A DNA stretch of 57,366 bases, filler included, from Porpidia crustulata (Eukaryota): assembly GCA_964255105.1 (NCBI GenBank). It is 7 parts of 7 records of this genome, joined end to end, with 100 filler letters (N's around TTAATTAATTAA, not from the genome) between each part and the next. Parts side by side here need not be neighbours in the genome. Positions count along the whole stretch, not along the records: positions 49,282 to 57,366 come from CAXUWE010001171.1; 6 more parts are not named here. One strand, written 5' to 3'. The notes under the pieces were generated by a model that was given only the letters and a program-made list of their open reading frames with translations, was not told where the DNA came from and made no database searches. This document shows, one piece after another, positions 8,133 through 56,483 of the stretch. The position numbers were made by a program, and so were the translations under genes. Numbering within the stretch: the stretch's first letter is position 1; each line of letters opens with the position of its first letter.

Positions 8133-8232
8133 NNNNNNNNNNNNNNNNNNNNNNNNNNNNNNNNNNNNNNNNNNNNTTAATTAATTAANNNNNNNNNNNN
8201 NNNNNNNNNNNNNNNNNNNNNNNNNNNNNNNN
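8133..8232. other. Artificial contig linker (N44-TTAATTAATTAA-N44)
   Basis: 100-bp spacer with stops in all six frames, identical at all six junctions. Confidence 0.98.
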
Positions 8233-14654: not shown

Positions 14655-15721
14655 CTACTGGAAGAAGTGTGATACTAGGTGAGAATACGAGAATGCGGGA
14701 CATACCTGGGTCAAATAGCCAGTATGGAGGATCATGGTACCTTCATGTCCTCGGTGAGTATATGGCTGAGTTGACGAGCGAGGTCCCAGACATTCTTGGA
14801 CGTGACGGAGAGACAATCCATAGCCAGGGATGAATAACCCAGTGTAGCACTCACACGGCGTGAGACTCATCTCTCCGTTTGATCGTTTGTGCTGATCTTC
14901 TCTTAAAAGAAACACTGATTTCCTTGCCTGCTCCTCCACCGCAAACCAAGCTTCTCCCTGTGTTTGTCCGTCCTGCAAAGATCTCGGCAGAAGAATACTG
15001 CGGAGCTCCTGTTCCGGCCGACTGCATCGCTCCTCGAATTGACCGCTGTCCGATGCATCTTTTATCCACCCAATAATGAAGGCGCGATTGTCCTGGAACA
15101 TGGCCGAAGTGATACCAACATCCTCCAATTCCCGACCAATCTGGCACCACATAGCTTCATCCCCATCCTCGGCTGAACTAATGGCAGAATTCGATAATAC
15201 TGACTCCTCGCGCAATCCTGATTGATGCTCGAGCACGAGCTGCCGTAAAAGCGTCTCTATCCGAGCTTGGCCAGCGCTGTATTGTGTTTTAGTCCGTGGC
15301 GTGCAGTTTTGAGGCTAAGGGAATGATTATACCCAAGAAGTCCCACGTTGAACGACGTGAGAAGACAAGTATTGGATACGATCCGCAGTCTAATGCTTTC
15401 GACATGGTCTTTGCTCCATCTCAACCTGTCCCACGTCCTTTTGCTTTGCGTACCGAGACTTTTGTACTCTGAGAGGAGAGATTGAAGCTCTCGAAGCACC
15501 TCAGTGCAGGCTCCAACCAATTGCTTGAGACCTTGCGGCTTTGTAAGGCCCATTCCTTGGCCTTGGACCGAATCTTGCACTTCCTTCAGAGCAAGCTGTA
15601 AGCATGCGACCTCTGATGAAACGGCACGGAACTCTTCTGGCGCGGCACGGCACTCACGCCATACATTTTGTGAAAGTTGCGTACAGAGGATAAAATCTCC
15701 TACACTGAAGCCAAAGCTCAT
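14655..15721 (-). CDS. HeLo-like / fungal STAND N-terminal domain protein with no NACHT domain visible; 3' end uncertain
   Basis: MSFGFSVGDFI...WRECRAAPEEF...C..VL.EL..LL..YKSLG...WDRLRW. Intron 15332-15277 joins in frame to ORF 14655..15236 (W.QIGRELEDVGITS...FIIGWI helical block). Confidence 0.75.
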
Positions 15722-16357
15722 GATGGGAGGAGGTGAGCTAGAAAATTTTATGTGAAACAACAACAGGATAGATTGAATGATGTCTTTTGTGAGCTGACAA
15801 TACTCAGAGACAGACAATCAATGTTGAACATGTACAGAAGAATGTTATACTACATGGTATGCACGAAATAGTAGAATACGGAGTAGAAACGAGACGATAG
15901 CATTGCCGATCAGCTTGTATCGACCACCTGCATATGCTGGCTTGACGCATGGTCTCCTTGAATGCCAACCAATCATCAACTTCATTGTCCTATCAGCCCA
16001 CGAGATACGTCCATTGAAGATCTCATGTTGCAATAAAAGGCAATTGTTAAAATCCACATTTCTTGGCAGCAGACTACTATAGTCAAGAACATTGACAGAA
16101 ACGTGCCTCGAAGGTAATAGTCCTTGACCTAAAGGAAAAAGCGTCTATCATACCGTGATTCATCGTCATAATCATCACGTCACGTGCTACTAGCCCTAAA
16201 GCGATGAAAGTATTACCATAGCCTTTATGTTCCATTCTTTACCTCACTCCAAAACTAACATGTCCATGCCATTACCACCACTTCAATAACCAACAAGCAG
16301 ATGAGGAAGTTCAAACCGTCGAATCTCCTCTGCACCAGTCACCATGTCCTGAAAGCC

Positions 16358-16457
16358 NNNNNNNNNNNNNNNNNNNNNNNNNNNNNNNNNNNNNNNNNNN
16401 NTTAATTAATTAANNNNNNNNNNNNNNNNNNNNNNNNNNNNNNNNNNNNNNNNNNNN
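16358..16457. other. Artificial contig linker
   Basis: N44-TTAATTAATTAA-N44. Confidence 0.98.
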
Positions 16458-24578: not shown

Positions 24579-24678
24579 NNNNNNNNNNNNNNNNNNNNNN
24601 NNNNNNNNNNNNNNNNNNNNNNTTAATTAATTAANNNNNNNNNNNNNNNNNNNNNNNNNNNNNNNNNNNNNNNNNNNN
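24579..24678. other. Artificial contig linker
   Basis: N44-TTAATTAATTAA-N44. Confidence 0.98.
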
Positions 24679-25075: not shown

Positions 25076-27040
25076 CTAATCATCCGGCTCGAAATCAAAC
25101 GTGAGATAGCTCAGCATCGCCTCCGTATGCTTCCTCTGAAACTCCTCCCTCTCAGCCCGAAACTCTTTCCTCATCTGCTCGCCATCCTCCAATGAGATCG
25201 GAAACCCATCCACCATCTCCACCACCAGGTCGAAAAGCTCGAACGGTAAATTTCTGAGGGCAGGGACTGTCTGGCGCAGTTCTTGGGCCCACCAGTCCCG
25301 GCGTTGGCAGGGAACCATGGCGGTTGACATGCAACGTCGGTTCGGATCGATGAGATGGAGCTCCAGGATCTTGCAGTGGCCTGATCGGGTCTTGTCGACC
25401 AGTTCCATGGAGTCGAGCCGGGTTTGGAAGGTATTGGGGAAGCAAATGACTCGGTTCTCCCTTGTCAGGACGTTACCGAGAACCTGCACGTCTGGGTCGC
25501 CGTCTTGCGCGCCGTATATTTCCGGGGCGAAAGGGGGTTCGAGGATTTCGCCATAGGCCAGATTTGCTTCTTCTAACATCACTCTTCGCTGGAAAGATAT
25601 CGAGCCATTGGTGATGTTTTGGCTGTCGTAGAAGTAGAATGCTGTGGCGCAAATACGCTCATTCTGGATTACACCGATTACCAAATGTCATGTGGAGAAC
25701 ATGGGAGAAGAAATGACGTACCGATTGACCTTGAACCTGCCAATCCCCCCCTTCATACACTCGAAGCGTTGGATCCAAACAGATATTTCTTAGCCTCAAG
25801 ACCATCTGAACTCCAATATTCCAAAATTCCTTCTTCAGGTCTACGTGCACCCAATCGACAAAGTCCGATTCACCATCTAAGTAGCAGCTGTAGGCCCGTT
25901 GTTGTGGAGGGCGAAACGGACCAGGTTCGCGCGCTATCAATGGTTCTCGGCCGAGGTCTACAGTTTGCCAGCGCTGATGAATGTATCCTGGCGCCTTCAG
26001 ATCCATGAGCGTCCTGTTGAACAGCGGAATCATGATATCTATGATCTTCTCAATCGTAGGATAAATAGCCTGTTGTCGGGTAGGATGAATATTGTTAATA
26101 TATGAGGCAATACTAGAGAGATATATCAATCCTGGTCCGTAATTTTCGAGACGATTCTCTGCTTGAGGGAGTATTCACCGTGAAGCTCCTTTCCCTTGAT
26201 CGGCAAACTTGATATCAAATGGCAGCCACTGAAAGCGTCTTGACCAAGCCATGTCATTAGGATACTTTCTTCTATCTTTCTGGATGCAATCTTCTTCCGA
26301 AGGCAACTTCCTGACCGTTCCGCCCTGACCGCACCTCGATATGCAATCTTGAGGTGCTATGGTGCCTTCTCTGATCATCCTCGTTCTTTCAAAACTCAAT
26401 GGAAACAGGAATGGATCTACAATATCCATGACCGGATGAAAGAGGGGTTGGTTGGAACTATGTACTGCAGCTTGCTCAATGTGCCTTACTGATGATGATA
26501 GGCTATGCTTGACATCTAGTGGTACGTAGTCATCCGATTTCAGAACTCCCCCGTCAATCGCTGGGACGAAGCATGAGGTGTAAAAATCCTGGACATTGTA
26601 CTTCACCTCCTCAATGCACTGTATATGATCAGTCAAAATATGCTAATCCCCTTCTCACGCTCTTCCAACCTACCCAATCAAGCATGGCTCTAGTCACATC
26701 TTGCCCAGTCATGATATTCCCCACTTTCCAGGTATCGACGAATGAACTGTCAAATATCTTTTGGTCCCAGCGCGCCATGTCAGTAAGACTGTTCATTAGA
26801 GCGATCATGGTTCTTTCGCGGACTGTGTAACAGAATTTTCTGAGCGTGATATGAGTGGCCAGACCTCTTCCAAGCTCTTCAATCCACTCACGGGTTCTCT
26901 GAGGCATCTAACGCCGAATAAAGGACTGTATTCTCATCTGCCTGGACTATCGGCTGATATCGCACACTCTGCATTTCTGGCCATCGTAGAGGTAGTCCAA
27001 AGCCCGGGACTGTCCATCCGATTTGCTTTCGAGATGCCAT
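25076..27040 (-). CDS. DUF4246-family protein (2OG-Fe(II) oxygenase-like fold), multi-exon
   Basis: VPGFGLPL, RERTM..LMNSLTD...W..KIFD, DIVDPFLFPL, FQWLP.D, SYINNIHP, YEGGDW, ICATAFYFYDSQNIT and DPNRR.MSTA.VPCQRRDWW. Five ORF pieces are joined by GT-AG introns. Confidence 0.85.
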
Positions 27041-27752: not shown

Positions 27753-30279
27753 CTACTGTTCAACCGTGTCTTCAAATATCTCCGGAGTAGAATCGCTATC
27801 CCAGATGTCTTGGGCGCTGAAGCTGGGGATTGGCTCGACATCCGTATTCATCTTGCTGGCTACCCTCGCTACCAGTTTCTGGAACGCCAGAGCGGTGTTT
27901 GGATCCGAGTTGTGTATCTGGACAAGCTCACGAGCCGTAAGATGGTCTTTGTTCCTAGCATCAAGATCCACATCGCCCAGATCAAAGTCTGACAGGTATT
28001 CGATGATATTAACGTCAGGAAACTTGGCCACGAGATATAACAGAGTCTCATCACCCTCGGACAAAAGGTTGTGCGTAGCTCCGGATAGTAGAAGGAGCTT
28101 CATGGATTCGAAGCGACTAAATTTGATTGACAAAGCGAGCGGCGATTGCCCTTCATTGTCCAGAATATCAAGGTCTGTACCGTTTTTTATTAGAAAGGTG
28201 GCGCTTCTTGGGTGATTCTGGACAATTGCTGATGATAGGGCGGTCTTTCCTGCGTATGTGCGCTTATCGATATCAGCACCATAATCAAGGAGAGGCTTGA
28301 CATAGGCTAGATCATCATTGAAAGCGCAAGCATAGTGGAGGGCATTCCAGCCTCTCATCTGTTGGGTGATTCTGACACCGTATTTGATCAGCATCAGGAT
28401 AATTTTTGGTGTTTTTGCTTGGGCCGCATAATGCAATGGTGTTGTATTTGTATTGTCATTACTGTTCGGATAAGCGCCGTATTCTGAGAGCATTCTGACC
28501 GCCTTAGCTTCACCCCTTTGTGCTGCCCAAGAAAGTGGAGACCTCCCAATGGAATCGACAGTGTCCAAATTTGCGGTAGACTTTTGCAGCTCTTCCTGAA
28601 TGTTGCCAGGTCGAATGTGAAGGATGATAGAATGTAGATCTGAGAATTTTCCGTGCTCCAGGAATTGTGTATCAAAAAATAATTTCCGTAGATTGTTGAT
28701 GACGGAGATCTCTGCACTGTTGCCCAGAATTTTGGCTCCTGCATAGTCTACAGCAGTCCTGCAAACAGTCAATCAACGCAGACTCTGGATCCCTAACAAT
28801 CGTCGAACTTACGTAGGTGCCTCAGTCTCCATATATGGGTGTCCCCCAGCCTGCAGGAGTAGCTTACAGATGTCGACTTGATTGTTCTGGATGGCATACT
28901 ACTCCATTCATTTACTTAGCAAGAACTGTATGTCAGAAACAAGGTCGACTTCCTCAAGAATACTTACATGAAAGGGAGTCCGCCCACTATCGAATCTGAC
29001 GTCGCTTGGCGACGCACGACCTCGTTCGAACAACTGTTTCATATTGCCAACATCTCCTGTGGTAGCATAATGAAAGACCAAGGCCTTTCCGTCAACAACG
29101 CGATTGAATCGCAAGGACAACTCTGGTCCATACATCGCCGTAGCCTCGGCCTTCAATTGAACCATTTGTGATATTACAAACCATCGAGGAAATTTGTATA
29201 CGAAACTCGCTGACGAGTCCTTCCGTCCACGATAAGAAACCTGGTCGCACTTTTGACTTGGTAGTGGTGAGCCAGAATATCCAACAAACAAAGTTCCTAG
29301 GAACCCATCCAGTAGACGCGGGGTATTGAGACGTCGGCGTATATGACAGGAGCATTTACAACTTCTGCTGCACTCAAATACGTTCCTCAGGTCAGCACAA
29401 ACACCAATGCTGCTCCATCGGCCGACTTGACTCGATACAAAATCTGACCCTAGGGAGCTATTTTCTGGAACAGCAGACAATTCCTGTACTTGCATGACGG
29501 AATTACCATGCTCGTTGGTCTGTAGAGCCTTGGTGATACTGTCGACTGATGGTTCTGGCTTCCCTTGAATATTCGTCCTATTGTGCTATGTTTCGCACCC
29601 ATACAACTGGAAATTTTCAAGTTGCGCTAAGACTTGTGCACAAAACTGGTCTTGAGCACATCGATCTTGATGACGCTCCTCAATGAGTTTATCTTCTAGA
29701 CGCCGCTGATTGACACTTGTATAATTAGTGACCATATAAATGTTTCGGACGTCAAGTTCAATACGTAGCGAAGAGGACCTGTACGCCATTAAATGAATGA
29801 ACACATCGGGTGAGTTCCTGAACTGGGCAAAGAACTTACGCATTGAAAGTTGCCAAGACAATTGATAGATTAATCCTGCCATCTCGTAACTCAGTTTGGA
29901 GACTTTGGACCTTTGATATCACTTTTAACCAGGATATTCGCGAGAATTCAGCTCCGTTAGATGTCGAAGAGGGCGGGTTTACACAAGAACGGAACAAAGC
30001 CTCCAGCTCTCGGGCTTTTTCACGGATATTCGTTAGAGCCAAGGTCAAATGTGATCCCTTATCACTTAATGAGTCTATTTTATTTTGAGACTCTTTCATG
30101 ACCCAGGCAACCTCTGTGACGGCCGCGGTAATATCAGCAACTTCGTTGTTTAGAGCCTCTAGTTGACCCGGCGCATCACGATAAGATTTGATCAGATGAA
30201 ACGCTTTTTCTAAGGTTGAAAGAACAGTGAGAGTGCTGGCGGTGATTGATAAAGGATCCATAGTGAGCAAAGACATCAC
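27753..30279 (-). pseudogene. HeLo-like N-terminal domain plus ankyrin-repeat protein with one in-frame TAG at 29586-29588
   Basis: MDPLSITAS...YRDAPGQLEALNNEV N-terminus, C.CSCH...G.LFVGYSG...Y.FPRWF middle block and ankyrin repeats (GRSPLSWAA, TPLHYAA, NALHYAC, GKTALSSAI). ORFs 29586..29882 and 28908..29495 are in the same frame, separated by a single TAG. Confidence 0.75.
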
Positions 30280-32792
30280 CCTTGCCAGATGTTTCTAAAT
30301 TCACTGATAGCCAGAAACCAATATGGTCTCGTTGATTGCTTTCTTCGTCGATTGGTACGAGAGGCTATTGGGGTTCACTCGTCTTTTCGCTGTTAGAAGC
30401 CACATGGTATGACTAGGGGCTATAGCAGACCAGCGTTCCTACTATGTCTACAGAGATTTCGAGGAGAACTCCCCTTTAAATCTCGTATCGTAGAATATCA
30501 GAGAAGCGCTCATAGCACACCAGCTATATTAGCGATTTTTGACATTTAACACTGTATCCCAAGCATCCGAATTAGAACCGATGCGAAGAGCAAGAAATGG
30601 CATTTAGGCAGCACCCTTGCTAACCCTAGGCAAGGCTCGAAATCGTTTGATCTTCGGACACTTAGGCGAATTCCGGCGCTGAAAAGATAAGCCAAGCTTG
30701 CGCGATGAAAGCGAAATAAAAATCTTGTGAACGCAAAACAGCGAATTTCGTTATGGTTTGATCATGAGTAACGTTCATAATCTAGAGTTTTGAATCGCAA
30801 TTCATTTCAACGTTTAATAATGCGTCGTTGTTGTGATCAAAATTGAAATATGAATCGTTAATTGATCCGAATCGGTTGATGATACGTCGTCACGACCATT
30901 AAATCGGACGCCTTCTCAGCTGCACATACAACATCCGCGTCCATCATTACTCGCGCAGGTGAGAATGCTGCCAAAGAAAATGTCAACGTGGAAACTGGCG
31001 TACCCAACGAACATGTGCCCGCCGGGAAACCTCATCATCAATATCAGAGGTAAATATATGTACATTGGAGAGACATAGATCCCATTCTGGCGTACCGTTA
31101 TAAGTATGGTAAAGCTTGTTCGTACGGGAAAATGACTGGCGGCAGGTATCAAGAAGAGGAAAATGAATTAAAGAACATGACGTAGAGGACGGCATGCGGA
31201 GATAAACATAACAGAACTTCAAGCGTGCAAAGCTTGCAATAGATTTCTGTACATGACATTCCCATGAGAGATTTGCTTTGTGCAACAGGCCCCTATTAAC
31301 TGTTGATGGTTTGAAATCTTTCTCGACTTGCTAGTTTCTTGAGTCGAGAAGGTCGGGACGCAAAGATCCACGAGGAGTATGAGGTTCCATCTCTTTGTGA
31401 TAAAGAAGACGAGAGCAACTCATTTCGTTAGTAAAAATATGATCCAAATTGGAGAAAGCCTATGTCATCGACGACGCGACGGTAATTCTTTCTCCTGTCA
31501 GCTTGTAATTCCCATCCAAAGACGGCAAACTATAGAGGAGGGTCTTTCAGGCTGGAACAATAATATTTGACCCATAACTGCATGTAATCATCTTAGGGAT
31601 GGATACGATTATGATCGATCCCTACAGACTATGTGAGTGCTTGAAGCCATTCAATGAGGTCTGCATACCCTCATCTGCCAAACCGACAAGCGAGCGGTGG
31701 TAACTTTTGGTTTCACGCCCGAATAAAGCTTCTTTGTACGGCTTAATATAGCGCTCTATAATGATTACATCGATGTGCTGCAAAAAGTGGTTGAGAATAT
31801 TACTTATAATTACATACTACAAGAGATATATGATTAGAATAATTGGTACTGCTAAAAGTGTTACAAACCCTGTCAGTCCGATGGAGCATAATGTTGGTGT
31901 AGAAACTGAAGTAAGAGATGAAGAATCGGAATTGATAATTTTCGTACCATTTTCAGATGCCGTGATAAAGCTTGGGCGGAATGTATCTGCTTTGGTCCCC
32001 TCTTGATGTGGATTGCATATTGATCCAGAGCGTCTCTTGAATTTCCAAAAATTGAACAGCAAGAAAACGCCTGAGCTTGAAAAAAAATCCACGAACTGAC
32101 AGCCGATGCCGATGGCAATTACATAAATCGAGTTGATCCGGTCTTGACAGTTGCTGTGTCTCTACGTATCCCTGCCACTTTAGATATGACACTAAGAATC
32201 AAGCGAGAGAAGTGCACGATAAACTAAAGACAGGAGATGAAGTAGAAATAAGGCGATAGTGGTTTCGTAGAGCCACGAGTACGTTGAGGGCTTCTCGTTA
32301 CACACGGCAGAGGATGCTTCACCACTTCGTGCGTTCTGAAAGGTGCTGCCAACATATCAGATACCAATATGACGTCGGCGAACAGTTCGTCTGCAGCAGA
32401 GGTTACACGAGGATGCACAGTCAAGTCCTCAAGATACAATGGTTCGACCTCAAGAACCAGCAAAGCTACCCTATTACTTAGCCTTTCCTCTAACGCAGGG
32501 CAAACTCAACCGCTGGAAATGGTTAGATGGTGCGAGGTGCTGCGATGGTACTATCTACCTCTCGAGCCTGAACGTATATGAAAGGCAGCTACTAGCCCAG
32601 ATTAAAGTCTTCTGCATCAAAGTGTCCATCTTGGCACAAGCTTGCGAACTGAACAGTCTAGAATTTTCTGGCAAGTAGTGCGGGAAGAAATCCGCCCAGG
32701 TGCAATGGTCAACATATCGAGATCGCGAGGATGCATTATGTAACGGTTGTCCCTTTAACAACACAAGATATAAACAGAGAGAGTAATAGACT

Positions 32793-32892
32793 NNNNNNNN
32801 NNNNNNNNNNNNNNNNNNNNNNNNNNNNNNNNNNNNTTAATTAATTAANNNNNNNNNNNNNNNNNNNNNNNNNNNNNNNNNNNNNNNNNNNN
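32793..32892. other. Artificial contig linker
   Basis: N44-TTAATTAATTAA-N44. Confidence 0.98.
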
Positions 32893-40989: not shown

Positions 40990-41089
40990 NNNNNNNNNNN
41001 NNNNNNNNNNNNNNNNNNNNNNNNNNNNNNNNNTTAATTAATTAANNNNNNNNNNNNNNNNNNNNNNNNNNNNNNNNNNNNNNNNNNNN
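40990..41089. other. Artificial contig linker
   Basis: N44-TTAATTAATTAA-N44. Confidence 0.98.
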
Positions 41090-45978: not shown

Positions 45979-46933
45979 ATGGATTATCAGACTTCTGGCG
46001 GTCGCGGTTGCTACAATTGTGAGTCTAGATTGAATTTTCTACAGTCGCAATCCTGTTCTCCTAGTGACGCCTGCGCAATGAGGTGCCTTCTTGGAGGATC
46101 ACGTTTCGATGCCATGTTGTTGATCATGTCATAAGCATAATTCTCAAAAACTTGAAATGCCACGATCACAGAGTATACAACGACACTGAGCCCCACTTTT
46201 ACCTGGGGTTGCAGTATCTTAAAGCTCTCTTCCTGCTTGTTCTTGTGCTTTCCACCACTTTGCCTTCATTATTTTACGTTCGCTCTCGCAAAATCTTATT
46301 GCTATATTGCTTACATATCATTTCAGGTGGCGATAGCTCCCATCAAGCTCGAGATTGCCCAAAGCGCGGCACCCCAACCTGCTACAACTGCGGCGAGGAA
46401 GGTCATGTAAGCCGCGAATGCAACGCGCCCCAGAAAGAAAAGTCATGCTACCGCTGTGGTGAAGCCGGGCACATCTCACGCGATTGTCCAAACCCCGGTG
46501 CCGGTGGTGGAGGTGCTCCAAGTGGCGCAGGTGGATACTCCGGCGGTGGCGGAGGCGGACAGGAATGCTACAAGTGCGGCAAAGTCGGACACATTGCTCG
46601 TAACTGCACGGAGGGCTCATACGGAGGCGGTGGAGGAGGAGGATACGGTGGCCAGAGCCAAGGTGGTTATGGTGGTGGAGGCTACGGAGGTGGAGCTCGT
46701 CAAGGACAAACTTGCTACTCGTGCGGAGGATACGGCCACATGTCTCGCGACTGCACGCAAGGGCAAAAATGCTACAACTGTATGACCCTTTCCACCTCTT
46801 GGAGTTATTACTAACGGCCACAGGTGGTGAGGTTGGTCATCTGAGTCGCGACTGTCCCTCAGAGCCTTCATCTGAGCGCGTTTGCTACAAATGCAAGCAG
46901 CCCGGCCATGTCCAGGCAGCTTGCCCTAATTAG
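45979..46933 (+). CDS. byr3: CNBP/Byr3/Gis2 family CCHC zinc-knuckle protein (7 knuckles); exons 45979-46018, 46327-46779, 46824-46933
   Basis: Seven CYxCGxxGHxxRxC-type knuckles with Gly-rich linkers, ending [17 protein letters not shown] 5'UTR intron is likely at about 45865-45952. Confidence 0.93.
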
Positions 46934-49181: not shown

Positions 49182-49281
49182 NNNNNNNNNNNNNNNNNNN
49201 NNNNNNNNNNNNNNNNNNNNNNNNNTTAATTAATTAANNNNNNNNNNNNNNNNNNNNNNNNNNNNNNNNNNNNNNNNNNNN
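49182..49281. other. Artificial contig linker
   Basis: N44-TTAATTAATTAA-N44. Confidence 0.98.
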
Positions 49282-50558: not shown

Positions 50559-52460
50559 TCAAGCCTCCTCCATCTGCCCCGGCGTCGACGAGGTGCTGGA
50601 ATCCTGACTCGCCTTCTCCTCACGATCGTGCTTCTTCTTGTACCGGAATGCAATTAGCTGCAACATCGCCGCAACGAACAAGCACCCACCGGACCAGTAC
50701 CCAATGCTATCGTAGTCGGCACTGGCTCCGTTCTTCACCAAGGCGCCGGTGGTCAAGGAGCCGCCGAGGGCGAACACGGAGGCCTGGCACCACATCTGAC
50801 CGGTCCAGTGACCGAGGGATTGCCGGTGATCGTGTGGAATCAAGTATGCCATACCGGCTGCTGGCATGCCGACGATGACGCCGCCGAAAATGCCGAAGAG
50901 AATGCAGAAAGCTACCGCTCCTTCGGTAGTGGTAACGAGTGGCCATAGCAGTAGGGTGAAGATGGCGGCAAGCACGGTCGCTGTTGCGTGGGTGTAGATG
51001 GGATTTGTCCAGCTGCTCGATAGTCAGTATTGACGTTCTTCGGCGAAGGGAGAATCATCGTACCTTCTCGACGCTACAACCGTGCCGCCGACTCGACCAA
51101 TGGCGCTGAACGCGTTTAGGATGCAGAGGAACCAAAATGTACGAAATCCGCTATCTCCTGGGACTACTCCCGTTCCTCCAAAGGTATCCTCCATTGTACC
51201 TATACTGTTCGCGTGCGCCCAGCGTGTGATATGAAAGGCGAGAGGATAGAACCCAAAGTAGACCATGCTTGTCGACATGCTGTATGCGAGAAATGCGGGG
51301 TTTCGATATGCATAGGGGTCGCACCAAGTGGAAAGTTGGAAAACTGGACCCATGCATCGGTATTGAACTTTGGGGTTTGGGCCGCAAAAGATAAAGGCGG
51401 TGAAAGTGGTGAGTCCGACAACGCCGGAAAAGATTTTAACGCCAGAAGTGAACCCCAATGTCGGGTTAGCGACGGCGAATTTGAAAACAAGAGGGTATAC
51501 CAGCCCCCCTGCATGTGTTAGCCAGAGCCATGTAGATTAGGACCGAGTGCGTTACCAAATGCGGCTCCACTGCTTGTGATACCGACCGCTATGTATCGGT
51601 GATGTGGAAACCAGTCGATGGCATTCTGCGACGAAAAGGTAAAAAAGCAGGACTGCCCCAGACCCGTCATTAAACCGGACGTTAGCCAGATGAGACCGTA
51701 GTTTCCATCGTCGGGGCCAGCCTTTCCACTCGTAAAACTCAGGCACAAGAATCCAAGAAAGTTCAGAGCGAATCCGGCAAAGCCCAGTATGTGATTGTAC
51801 CGTCCAGTGTCGAGCAACCGGCCAGCAATGAAACTAAAAAAGAGTAGGCAGAATGACTCGGTACCACCGATGAGGCTTAGTTGAGTGTCGCTAGCAAAAG
51901 TCATGAGATGTGCGTCATAGAATCCGAGAAAGGCGCCATAAGCCATGACAAGACCCCTAAGCATCTGTCAGCGACAATGACCGATGATCGATATATTCGA
52001 CTGACCAACAATTGAACATCATCATGAAACCGGACAGAAGGACAGTGTATGGACGCCACGATCGAGGCCATCCGTGGACCTCATTGACTTCTCCTGGCCC
52101 TTCTGGTGAGGCTAGAACCGGCCAACTGCCAGCAGCCGCTTTTTCGCCCGAAACAAGTTTCTTTCCTAGATAGAGAGTAATTCAGTATTCAGAGGTAGAG
52201 TGTTGGGCCATATTAGATCAAAAGCGAGAATGCAGGTTATAAGACAATCGAGCCATTAGGTTGTAAGAGACGAGGTCGTTTACAATATTACGATGAGAAC
52301 AGATGCCGAAATATAGGACGAAGAAGAAAAGACATTGCGTCCGTCAAACAGACGCCGGAAGTAGCAGGATTCAAGGTAGAGTAACGGCCTTGGAAGGGTT
52401 CATCACATACCTATGAAACTTGAACCTACCTTTAAATAGATCAAGCACCATGGTGGCCAT
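50559..52460 (-). CDS. MFS transporter, monocarboxylate porter family (Mch4/Mch5-like), multi-exon
   Basis: Exon ...W.R.WRPYTVLLSGFMMMFNC|WGLVMAYGAF, SLIGG...FIAGRLLDTG, WFPHHR.IAVGITSSGAAFG|G.VYP, LNAFSAIGR and FCILFGIFGG. The likely first exon MATMVLDLFKG (ATG 52460, donor GTAGGT) is phase-compatible with the acceptor at about 52166. Confidence 0.88.
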
Positions 52461-54884
52461 TGTACCGTTCAAGACAGAAGAAATTGCTCGAATTTATGAA
52501 AGATCAAGAGACAACGTTGAACGCAAACAAATACATCATATATATGAGCGTTTCAATGGGAGAGACACGGTCGAAACCCTCGCGGCAATTGGTGATACAG
52601 ATGACGGTACAGCCAGGCTTGGCCTCGTCGCCGCCAAGGAAAAACACGCTCCATTGAATCTCCTTGTCCTGGACTCGGAGTCCAACGTTCCGCATTGAAT
52701 GGATCGATTCCACTGTGGATCCTGTTTGAAGCTGCTCTTGGCGTGCTTCTGCCAAGAGTTCACGGTAAACAAGATATGCTTGCAGGATTCCGTGATATCT
52801 GAGAAGAGAAGGTCTATAATGGCAGTGCATAATAGTTGATTAAGAACGGTTCGACTGGGCTATCGTACCAACAGCGATGATGTTGCCATCTGCAAACTGT
52901 CCAGACATCGGCCTTGGCCGGCATATTAAGGTGGAGCTTCCACGTCAGCGTAGGGAGGTCGGGATTGTCTGAGATAGAGAAGCGATAGGCGCGCAATGAT
53001 GCTTCCAAAACTCAGGACGTTTTTCGCCATCTGCTTATCGGTGTAGCATAAACATCGACGCTGTGAAACATCATCGTGCTCAAGATGTCTTGTTCGGTCT
53101 TCGGTCGGCATGAGTACGACCTTGGCTTGACTTGGCTGGTCGTACGTTGTGCATGATTGAGTCTGGGCTAGATTGATACTTATCGTTTCATTGCAGCGGT
53201 CCGGAGGCGCGCCGACCCCGATCCGACACTCCTTTTCAAATAAACCGTTTCTCACTCCGTCCCACCCCTTGCACCCTAACAATACTTGCCTACTTCCTGG
53301 AGGCCAAGTCCCGGACTGAGGACATACAAATTGCGAAGCATAGATATTTCCTTGCAATAATTTTGCTTCGAAAATTCTAGAAGTGGTCTGCCAGATCACG
53401 CCGAGACAACAGACAGCAAAGGAACAATCACGGTACGTTTCAAGTGTCAACAAGTTCTTTGATGGAGGTGGATGCATGTGATGGACGGAGTGTGCGGGTA
53501 GTAAATTGTCAACTAAGCGCATTGTCTGAAAGGAGTATGGTCGATTTCATCTTACTTCGAGTAGACCGAATCTCCCAAAGAGTCCGCGTCACCTTGGATG
53601 TGAGATGCATAGAGGCCGACTATGACGCTGCTGCTCATGCAACTTGTAAAGTCAATATCACGGGTGTATATATACTCCGGCTATTACTTTCTGATTCGTC
53701 CCCGACAATCGTTTTCAACATGTGCCCGGTTTCTCGCAATACGATATCTCTTACCTCTCTGCTACGGTCCCGCAGCCATCGTATCGCCGTTCCTGTTGTA
53801 CTCGGCAGCTAAATGGGAGCACGGCAAAGCTGTTAGGGATGCGTACGTAGAGAGACCTTCTATTGTTCTGGTCGGACTCTTTCACCGAGATACTTAAATG
53901 CATCTATGGCGCAATAATCGCAATGACACTGAAAGTCCGAGTGGTTTTTAAAGCTCTCACAGCAAACCCGACAGGCAGTCTTCAAGTAAGGGGAGCTTTG
54001 AAGCGCTACAACATCAACGCTGTGTCACCGTCCCCCAAAAGGAAGCCGCTATATAAGCAACACATGCGCTCTGATGTCGCCTTGCTGAACGTATGGTAAA
54101 AGTTGAGTGATTCGTGAGGCCAGATTCTACGAGTATCTCAGTCCTGGCTTTAGGAGTCCAAACGTCTGACGCATCTGATGTACTGCGTATCGTAATTGTT
54201 TTTGTCCTGCCCTTAGGAACTCTACAGCCATTTCTGGAGTACAATTCCTCGTGAGATCTTTTACCTCGTTCTAAGGAGTGACTTCTCAATCTTCTGGAAA
54301 GGCCACAGTATTGTTGACTGTGTTCAGTGAGAAGGAATTTGCTACTGCGCTGGTACGAAGCTCTTGTTTTTCGAGCATATATCGACATGCGTGTGCGTAA
54401 ACCCGCCTGTCGGACAGTATCTTGTCTGCGGCCAGAATTTTAAAGGTTGGCCGACAAGGCTCTAAAGCGAAACTCTGGCGCCGGTTGTAGAAGCTCTTAT
54501 TCTCAATGTCTTCCGGCGTGACGTGGAATTGCGGGATCCCACTGAAAGTTGATGACCTGCTTGAAGGCCTGCCCGAAGATGAGTGAGAGCTGCCTTCTTC
54601 AGAGACATCAACACTTACGGTCGTTCAAACCATTGTGAAGTCATGCCTTTCTGCATTTTCACCTCCAATCTTTTTCTGCGAGCGGATTGGCGTCGAGCCT
54701 TGCGGTTGACATCCGAGAGCGCAGGCTGGTGCCAGCGTAGTGCCTGGCCTTTCAATCGAGATGTCGACGCTGACTAGGACGAGCTGCTGAGACATGATCG
54801 CGACATTTCCGAGTTGAAATTAAGGTGCGGTGAGGTCGGAGCAATCATTACAAACACGGAAACATCTAACACCGATCGCATAAG

Positions 54885-55236
54885 TAAGTGCGGTCAATGA
54901 AATAATTTTGTGGCATTTTGAAATGTGCGTGGACAACGAGGAGGTATGTGAGAGGGATGAAGGCAGTGGGGTAACCTCAATCATGGTCTCATGCTAGAGT
55001 GTGCTGAAGTGCGCGTCCCAACGACCCACGTCGAGTGGAAGCTACAGGGCTTCAACTTGTGGCCAGTGTGCGAGTGTGACAGCTTATCGATTACACTTTC
55101 GCTCTTCGCGCGTCTGCCTTGGGCGAGCGATAGTTCCGTGATCCGGTATCTAAATGCGGTACATGGAACAACGTTGTGGTAATTTTGGAGTGTGCATGGA
55201 CAATGGCGAGGTATGTGAGAGGGATTAAGGCAGCGA
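54885..55236 (+). repeat. Degenerate direct repeat of about 85 bp, 2 copies (about 54885-54968 and 55151-55236)
   Basis: taagtgcggt...ttgtggcattttgaaatgtgcgtggacaacgaggaggtatgtgagagggatgaaggcag versus taaatgcggt...ttgtggtaattttggagtgtgcatggacaatggcgaggtatgtgagagggattaaggcag. Confidence 0.8.
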
Positions 55237-55870
55237 GGCCAGTGTGTGTGTGTATATGTGTGTGAGAGAGATCAACGCAGCGGGTGTGTGTATGTGTGTG
55301 AGAGAGATCACCGCAGCGGGTGTGTGTTGTTTGTTATGTCAGGTTTATTGTCCTTATGCAAGCTAGGCTTATGAAAGACACACGACTAGTTACATTAAAC
55401 ACGCTTAATTGTGGGACGATTTTCTCGTAGGCCGAATTCTCGCTTAGCAAGTTCTCGAGACATAGCATCACTGCCGATACTGAGTTTCACAGTTCCCTCC
55501 ACCCTTACTAATTCTTAAGGAAAATGTATAAAACCCTAAGAACCCCGATATTTCCACAGCAGCTTAGTATAGCTAGCAGAAGCCTCCTTCTTGGCAGCAC
55601 CGTGTGACAGAGGTGGGATTCGAACCCACGAGCTTCGCGTTTCTCTAGCGGGGGCCGCCCTCCCCTAGCGCCTAGAGTATTAACTAGCCCTTCCAGAATG
55701 ATGCACTACCAACTGCACCACTCCCCCGTCACAGCGGGTGTGTATGTGTGTGTAAGAGCGATTAAGTCAGCGGGTGTGTGTATGTGTGTGAGAAGGACCA
55801 ATGCAGCGGGTGTGTGTACGTGTAGGAGAGAGATCAATCCAGCGGGGCCAGTGTGTGTGTGTATGGTGTG
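55231..55870 (+). repeat. TG-rich minisatellite with a 36-bp unit (about 6 copies), interrupted by a SINE
   Basis: Unit CAGCGGGTGTGTGTATGTGTGTGAGAGAGATCAACG. Copies start at 55231, 55278, 55314/55732, 55768, 55804 and 55840. Confidence 0.9.
55326..55731 (-). mobile_element. tRNA-derived SINE (about 406 bp) with 12-bp target-site duplication
   Basis: The minus-strand head (55730-55605) has A box TGGTGCAGTTGG and a perfect T arm/B box GTGGGTTCGAATCCCAC. It is followed by a tRNA-unrelated body of about 270 bp and a 3' tail ...ATAACAAACAAC. CAGCGGGTGTGT flanks it at 55314-55325 and 55732-55743. Confidence 0.8.
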
Positions 55871-56483
55871 TCACACAAGACCGTCGCTGCCCTCTAGGGG
55901 CCCTGAGCGCCCTCAATCCCTGTCGCCTCTCACCCTCTCACGCCTTTCTAGGAAAACTTCCAGAACATCAACGCATGGTGCAGCAAGGCAGTGTGGCAGT
56001 GTATTGGTCGCATTCCCGGAAGATGCAACGAATCAGACTTAGATAAATTGCGATACCGTGATGATAGGTTGACAGAATCTCGGCTACCAAGCCTCCATGG
56101 TCAGCGACGGGCCGAAGTCCTCTAAGGCCCATAGAATACACAACGCCGCAAAGTGGTGAATCCTCGTCGTCAGTCCTTGTCTGGGGCCAACGGTGAGTCT
56201 CGCTGCTGTCGCGGCATTTTACAGAGAACGTGAACTCCTGCTTCATGGAGCCGCACGGCTTCGCACTGCGAGGATTCTCTCTCATATCTAGACCTCTTGT
56301 ATAAAGACTTGGCTGCTCTCACCTCAGTTCATCGTCAAGTCGTCTTGTCTCACCTCGTCTCCGCTTCCTAACCCTTTCGCAGCAACCACCACATCGTTCT
56401 TGTTTTGTTGACTCGAGTTATTGTTTCTTCAAAGCATCTCTGGCCTGTTCTATCTTCCCCCCCTTCTCTCTGTCATTCACACC

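Follow-up and report, generated by a model that had tools for sequence, protein, structure and literature searches.

Few SINEs have been characterised in fungi, and those covered by the available text of PMC5063351 come from pathogens and moulds, which agrees with the statement in the first-pass annotation of the locus studied here that described families of fungal SINEs are few. The same text places SINEs in a size range of approximately 100-600 bp. In Magnaporthe, the tRNA-derived SINE MgSINE is 472 bp long and present in about 100 copies (PMC5063351, available text), and its 3' end mimics the partner LINE MGL, according to the accessible part of PMC2104539, where MGL LINE-driven inserts are described with direct repeats of 10-20 bp, including repeats of 12 and 14 bp. 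In Aspergillus fumigatus, AfuSINE2-1a has a tRNA-related head, a low copy number, intact direct repeats (4-14 bp in the family), and a short non-poly(A) tail of terminal ACT repeats that is similar to the Tad-clade LINE I-1_AF (PMC5063351, available text). Filamentous ascomycetes also harbour other short retroposons of the Pol III type, present in tens to hundreds of copies: Foxy in Fusarium, Egr1, egh1, and SINE2-1_BG in powdery mildew, and nrs1 in Nectria, all of which are from plant pathogens in that text. LINE tails composed of short repeats are exemplified in the excerpt of PMC3747384 by the I element (TAA) and UnaL2 (TGTAA). In the literature on SINEs together with lichens or Lecanoromycetes, judged by titles, no paper was found on a characterised SINE of a lichen-forming fungus, and the words "SINE" and "LINE" have zero occurrences in PMC12387558.

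Here, we describe a 406-bp insert in the genome of Porpidia, an ascomycete of the lichen type. It is very probably one copy of a young tRNA-derived SINE with a low copy number (approximately 10-20). This reading is based on a tRNA-like head with internal boxes, the lack of coding capacity, precise ends that are common to several copies, a 12-bp duplication, and the absence of both inverted termini and poly(A). Against the background of fungal SINEs known from plant pathogens such as those harbouring Foxy, Egr1, egh1, SINE2-1_BG, and nrs1, the host differs in being of the lichen type.

The window, by which we mean the whole stretch of 57,366 nucleotides that was analysed, encodes ordinary fungal proteins, namely a pof12-type F-box propeller protein, Ras, an aldo-keto reductase, FMO, ankyrin, DUF4246, and MFS proteins. 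The best named relatives of the pof12-type ORF, at about 61% identity, are found in lichen-forming Lecanoromycetes (Xylographa, Pseudocyphellaria, Circinaria), and further relatives reach 70%. None of the 47 window ORFs scanned (10 + 14 + 23) contains a reverse transcriptase or endonuclease domain, and BLASTN revealed no second copy of the insert and no LINE tail within the 57-kb window, where the hits were just self-matches and a 12-mer of the surrounding minisatellite. The insert is situated in a non-coding stretch, roughly 3.4 kb from an ORF for an MFS transporter (51518-51967).

Some other features of the window were also recorded. Among three ORFs on the minus strand (15257-15817, 27753-28772, and 29836-30294), two contain N-terminal domains of the SesA type known from fungal NACHT/P-loop NTPases, and the third contains ankyrin repeats; these ORFs may be fungal NLR-like genes. 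The DUF4246 gene (25076-26642, minus strand) consists of three consecutive ORF pieces that correspond to profile positions 7-135, 137-277, and 273-401, and is interrupted by introns or frameshifts. The ORF at 46068-46814 (plus strand) contains four or more CCHC zinc knuckles and, as no other retroelement domain is located nearby, appears to encode a cellular nucleic-acid-binding protein and not Gag. Finally, six pairs of 44-N runs are placed about 8.2 kb apart (8133-8232, 16358-16457, 24579-24678, 32793-32892, 40990-41089, and 49182-49281), and such regularity suggests masking or scaffolding rather than biology.

The insert (55326-55731) breaks a minisatellite of TG-rich 36-bp units that extends from 55248 to 55846. 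The features of the locus, in the order of their coordinates, are:

55248..55325, no strand: left part of the 36-bp TG-rich minisatellite (Tandem Repeats Finder)
55314..55325, no strand: tail-adjacent copy of the target-site duplication, CAGCGGGTGTGT, 12/12 identical to 55732-55743, with one copy surplus to the 36-bp register
55326..55731, minus strand: inserted element, very probably a tRNA-derived SINE, 406 bp, bounded at both ends by the 12-bp duplication
55326..55334, minus strand: 3' tail ACAAACAAC, without poly(A); two other copies stop at the same base (loose ends at 55325)
55335..55604, minus strand: tRNA-unrelated body of about 270 bp, without an Rfam match at E-values up to 1
55605..55727, minus strand: tRNA-like head (Rfam RF00005, 27.5 bits, E 0.008, model positions 1-71 of 71)
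55616..55626, minus strand: B box GGTTCGAATCC, in the T arm, a perfect match to GGTTCGANNCC
55709..55720, minus strand: A-box-like stretch TGGTGCAGTTGG, at tRNA positions 8-19 in the Rfam alignment
55732..55743, no strand: head-adjacent copy of the target-site duplication, CAGCGGGTGTGT, recognised by identity and register
55744..55846, no strand: right part of the 36-bp TG-rich minisatellite (Tandem Repeats Finder)

Tandem Repeats Finder identified the 36-bp period both to the left of the insert (55248-55334), with 2.4 copies and 92% matches, and to its right (55732-55846), with 3.2 copies and 79% matches. The 12-mer CAGCGGGTGTGT starts at positions 55278, 55314/55732, 55768, and 55804; the unit that starts at 55840 is diverged. 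Because this 12-mer opens every unit of the minisatellite, its presence on both flanks is by itself weak proof of a duplication. The register of the array is more informative: when 55326-55743 was excised in silico and the remainder was written in 36-letter lines, all units fell into perfect register, and the exact 36-bp periodicity upon deletion claimed in the first-pass annotation is thereby reproduced. The two flanking copies are identical at 12 of 12 positions. Since 12 bases of one unit occur twice and other copies of the element break off at the same ends (see below), the flanks represent a true target-site duplication, as had also been proposed.

The same observations bear on the explanation that the insert is a degenerate or intron-bearing tRNA gene or pseudogene that is fixed at this locus and flanked by chance repeats from the minisatellite. 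The 12-mer recurs each 36 bp regardless of any insertion, and the tRNA-like head contains approximately 63 extra nucleotides where a tRNA intron would be located. However, the flank is doubled by 12 bases relative to the register, the 270-bp body is as multi-copy as the head, and the anticodon stem does not pair, which makes this explanation extremely improbable.

Just upstream of the minisatellite, there is a 57-bp direct repeat (54915-54971 and 55182-55238), of which the two copies are 84% alike and 267 bp apart. The second copy passes directly into the TG-rich minisatellite, which may therefore have expanded from this repeat. One contig (record 2) from the sequencing run X1, described below, matches 54977-55057 with nine differences, which points to a paralogue of part of this repeat region elsewhere.

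On the minus strand, the insert opens with TGACGGGGGAG, and its first 127 nucleotides hold a match to the full length of the Rfam tRNA model, with a score of 27.5 bits that is just below the gathering score of 29 for RF00005. The alignment places the extra nucleotides of the head in the anticodon region, and the anticodon arm is degenerate. In the predicted fold (z = -2.1), the T arm forms a hairpin and there is an acceptor-like stem. ARAGORN calls no tRNA genes across the whole window, so the head is tRNA-like and not a canonical tRNA. Compared to the A-box consensus, TRGCNNAGTGG, the stretch TGGTGCAGTTGG appears close in sequence. The pattern GGTTCGANNCC has a single match on either strand of the 57-kb window, where 0.35 matches are expected by chance, and this match is the B box in the T arm, located about 82 nucleotides from the A box. 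The head differs in two respects from the descriptions in the available text on AfuSINE2 elements: the heads of the latter do not fold as tRNAs, whereas the acceptor-like stem and T arm are retained here, and the second B' box of AfuSINE2-1a has no counterpart, the window containing one B box only.

The runs of four or more T residues within the element amount to two T4 runs and nothing longer, and there are none in the 400 nucleotides downstream of the element on the sense strand, so that a Pol III transcript of this copy would extend far into the flank. The tail, ACAAACAAC, adjoins the ACACAC of the target at this copy; it differs from the ACT-repeat tail reported for AfuSINE2-1a in the text available to us. 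The minus-strand order given in the first-pass annotation, with an A box, a B box, a body of about 270 bp with T4 as the longest T run, and a tail that runs into ACACAC, was recovered in all its parts. No significant stem-loop is predicted for the last 90 nucleotides of the element (z = -0.41), and the fold of the whole element is not significant either (z = -0.98). As for coding capacity, there is one overlapping ORF (55608-56042), without a Pfam match. As in SINE2 elements, the insert is short (406 bp) and non-coding, and it has a tRNA-related head with A and B boxes, albeit with an Rfam score below the gathering score. Judged by description, it is similar in size to the 472-bp MgSINE.

The dispersal of the element was studied in X1, the one public sequencing run listed as containing the stretch (share of words 0.99), the contigs of which were compared over 54800-56300. 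No RNA run was among the listed matches. X1 is probably the source sample of the window, and it is therefore not an independent confirmation of the locus. A total of 29 contigs matched this region, with identities of at least 99% for 22 contigs, 95-99% for four, 90-95% for two, and below 90% for one. Depths of individual contigs refer to those among the matches listed (8 pieces). The contigs in the flanks have depths of 11.9 (record 1) and 8.89 (record 7), and the contigs inside the insert have depths of 181.5 (312 nt, 55355-55666, no differences, covering most of the body), 161 (54 nt, 55331-55384, no differences), and 122.9 (94 nt, 55637-55730, one difference). The ratio of insert to flank depth, roughly 10-20, suggests approximately 10-20 near-identical copies, with the reservation that contig depth is not true copy number and that the conversion assumes that all copies reside in one genome at about 10x. 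Since a 312-nt contig with no differences has such a high depth, these 312 bp are identical in most copies, which indicates that the family is young. By comparison, about 100 copies are given for MgSINE in the available text, and the Porpidia lineage is of the lichen type and far from Magnaporthe; a low copy number is a trait shared with AfuSINE2-1a, as are the tRNA-related head, the short tail without poly(A), and the intact direct repeats, the 12-bp repeat being within the 4-14 bp range of that family (PMC5063351, available text).

Depth bins of 430 and 265 near the tail were considered as extra copies of the tail, possibly from a LINE, and rejected, as overlapping short contigs had been counted twice. 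Due to this double-counting (for example, of records 4 and 5 over 55355-55384), depths of single contigs are used throughout rather than sums.

Several contigs leave the insert for unrelated sequence precisely at its ends. On the tail side, two contigs depart at 55325, and the agreement of 0.63 between them indicates two different flanks. On the head side, one contig each departs at 55730, 55731, and 55732, and all three continue differently. These loose ends coincide with the ends of the element that are predicted from the 12-bp duplication. The element, with both ends shared, is present at several loci (at least four when the window copy is counted). The X1 contigs thus contain dispersed, albeit partial, copies with differing flanks and common ends, rather than the single copy without dispersed homologues that would have spoken against a SINE. 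Taken together with the tRNA-like head, the perfect B box, and the duplication, the presence at several loci bears out the initial proposal of a tRNA-derived SINE in a TG-rich minisatellite.

The high depth could alternatively stem from a more abundant organism in the sample or from a collapsed assembly, in which case the insertion would effectively be confined to a single locus. X1 comprises 111 Mb of contigs, which is more than one fungal genome and signifies a mixed sample, and the sum of contig depths does not equal copy number. Yet at least three different head-side flanks and two tail-side flanks are attached to the element at its two shared ends, which implies several loci whatever the organism, and the window copy itself lies within fungal DNA with a depth of about 10x. 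We therefore regard this alternative as very unlikely.

For the left junction, positions 55238-55311 were excluded from the contig comparison by the repeat filter, and at the right junction record 7 extends 29 letters into the insert, where bridging needs 31. Among the X1 contigs, there was no joint across the insert of the kind expected from an empty-site allele. The consensus on the tail side merges the two contigs mentioned above, and loose ends from the head and the tail cannot be paired into duplications. In two runs from other organisms in the same study, X2 and X3, no contigs match the stretch, which is not proof of absence. Exact-pattern searches for relatives in metagenome contigs gave no matches to a 24-mer from the tail or to a gapped pattern of the A box and B box, and a search of the same type in viral contigs gave no matches to a 27-mer comprising the B box and the downstream sequence.

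At position 55688, the copy in the window has a C and the contig with a depth of 122.9 has a G, and the window copy thus carries a minority variant. The change is a transversion and not the C-to-T change expected from repeat-induced point mutation. Furthermore, one X1 contig tracks the element as far as 55666, beyond which its sequence is unrelated; it may represent a 5'-truncated copy or a variant or subfamily head.

The precise ends and the branch at 55666 also bear on the alternative that the insert is another short repeat, that is, a solo LTR, a MITE, or part of some larger composite element with a tRNA-like stretch, which we consider quite unlikely given that the head spans the whole tRNA model and contains a perfect B box. 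If the ends are moved two bases on the plus strand, the insert reads TG...CA, which is LTR-like. However, LTR elements generate duplications of 4-6 bp, the observed duplication of 12 bp is too long, and no duplication of 4-6 bp fits the moved ends; moreover, the other copies end at 55325/55326 and not two bases inward. A MITE needs inverted termini, and no terminal inverted repeats were found in the element. The contig that departs at 55666 could mean that the body occurs in another context, as in a composite element, but it can equally well be explained by a 5'-truncated copy, and 5' truncation is typical of reverse-transcribed elements. The insert is thus best explained as a copy of a tRNA-derived SINE.

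The suggested preference for (CA/TG)n targets did not find the same support. Neither the three flanks on the head side nor the merged consensus of the two flanks on the tail side consists of TG/CA repeats, and a strict preference is accordingly not supported, although five flanks are a small sample for a weak preference. In these other copies from X1, the tail ends with the same AAC and is not extended by ACAC. Microsatellite-targeting non-LTR elements, which Kojima and Fujiwara reportedly described in 2004, are said to have a 3' end that matches a simple repeat and to reside almost always within their own repeat; the element here differs from them in that its other flanks are not TG repeats. 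At the copy in the window, the AAC tail runs into ACACAC, so that microhomology between primer and template is possible. A more far-reaching scenario is that of an active SINE family confined to the lichen-forming lineage, in which microhomology of the AAC-type tail would bias, rather than restrict, insertion to TG microsatellites, and in which a length of 406 bp would allow escape from repeat-induced point mutation and explain the 10-20 near-identical copies; we consider it unlikely as a whole.

The structure of the element is compatible with the following likely mechanism, which is modelled on established target-primed reverse transcription and agrees with fungal precedent. Guided by the internal A and B boxes, RNA polymerase III would start at or just before the tRNA-like head and read through the body and the tail into the flanking DNA. 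The reverse transcriptase and endonuclease encoded by a LINE would then take the RNA by its 3' region, and by analogy with other Pezizomycotina, this partner is probably a Tad/I-type element. The element is located on the minus strand, and the cDNA therefore has plus-strand sense, which means that the primer must be the 3' end of the plus strand, ...GGGTGTGT, at 55325. The plus strand would accordingly be nicked after ...GGGTGTGT, and the freed 3' end would prime cDNA synthesis from the AAC-type tail, with the complement of the AAC tail as the first bases copied. A second nick in the other strand, 12 bp away, would give rise to the 12-bp duplication, a length that falls within the 10-20 bp of the MGL-driven inserts in Magnaporthe.

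Based on a comparison with known fungal SINEs by description only, the family seems to be undescribed. It also looks recently active, and because the copies are nearly identical and the duplication is perfect, it is probably still moving. The mechanism is textbook and the kind of element ordinary, and the value of the finding is therefore descriptive. A family that is still moving would provide insertion-polymorphism markers for populations of lichen fungi, and it would help to identify the LINE that is active in the genomes of lichen fungi.
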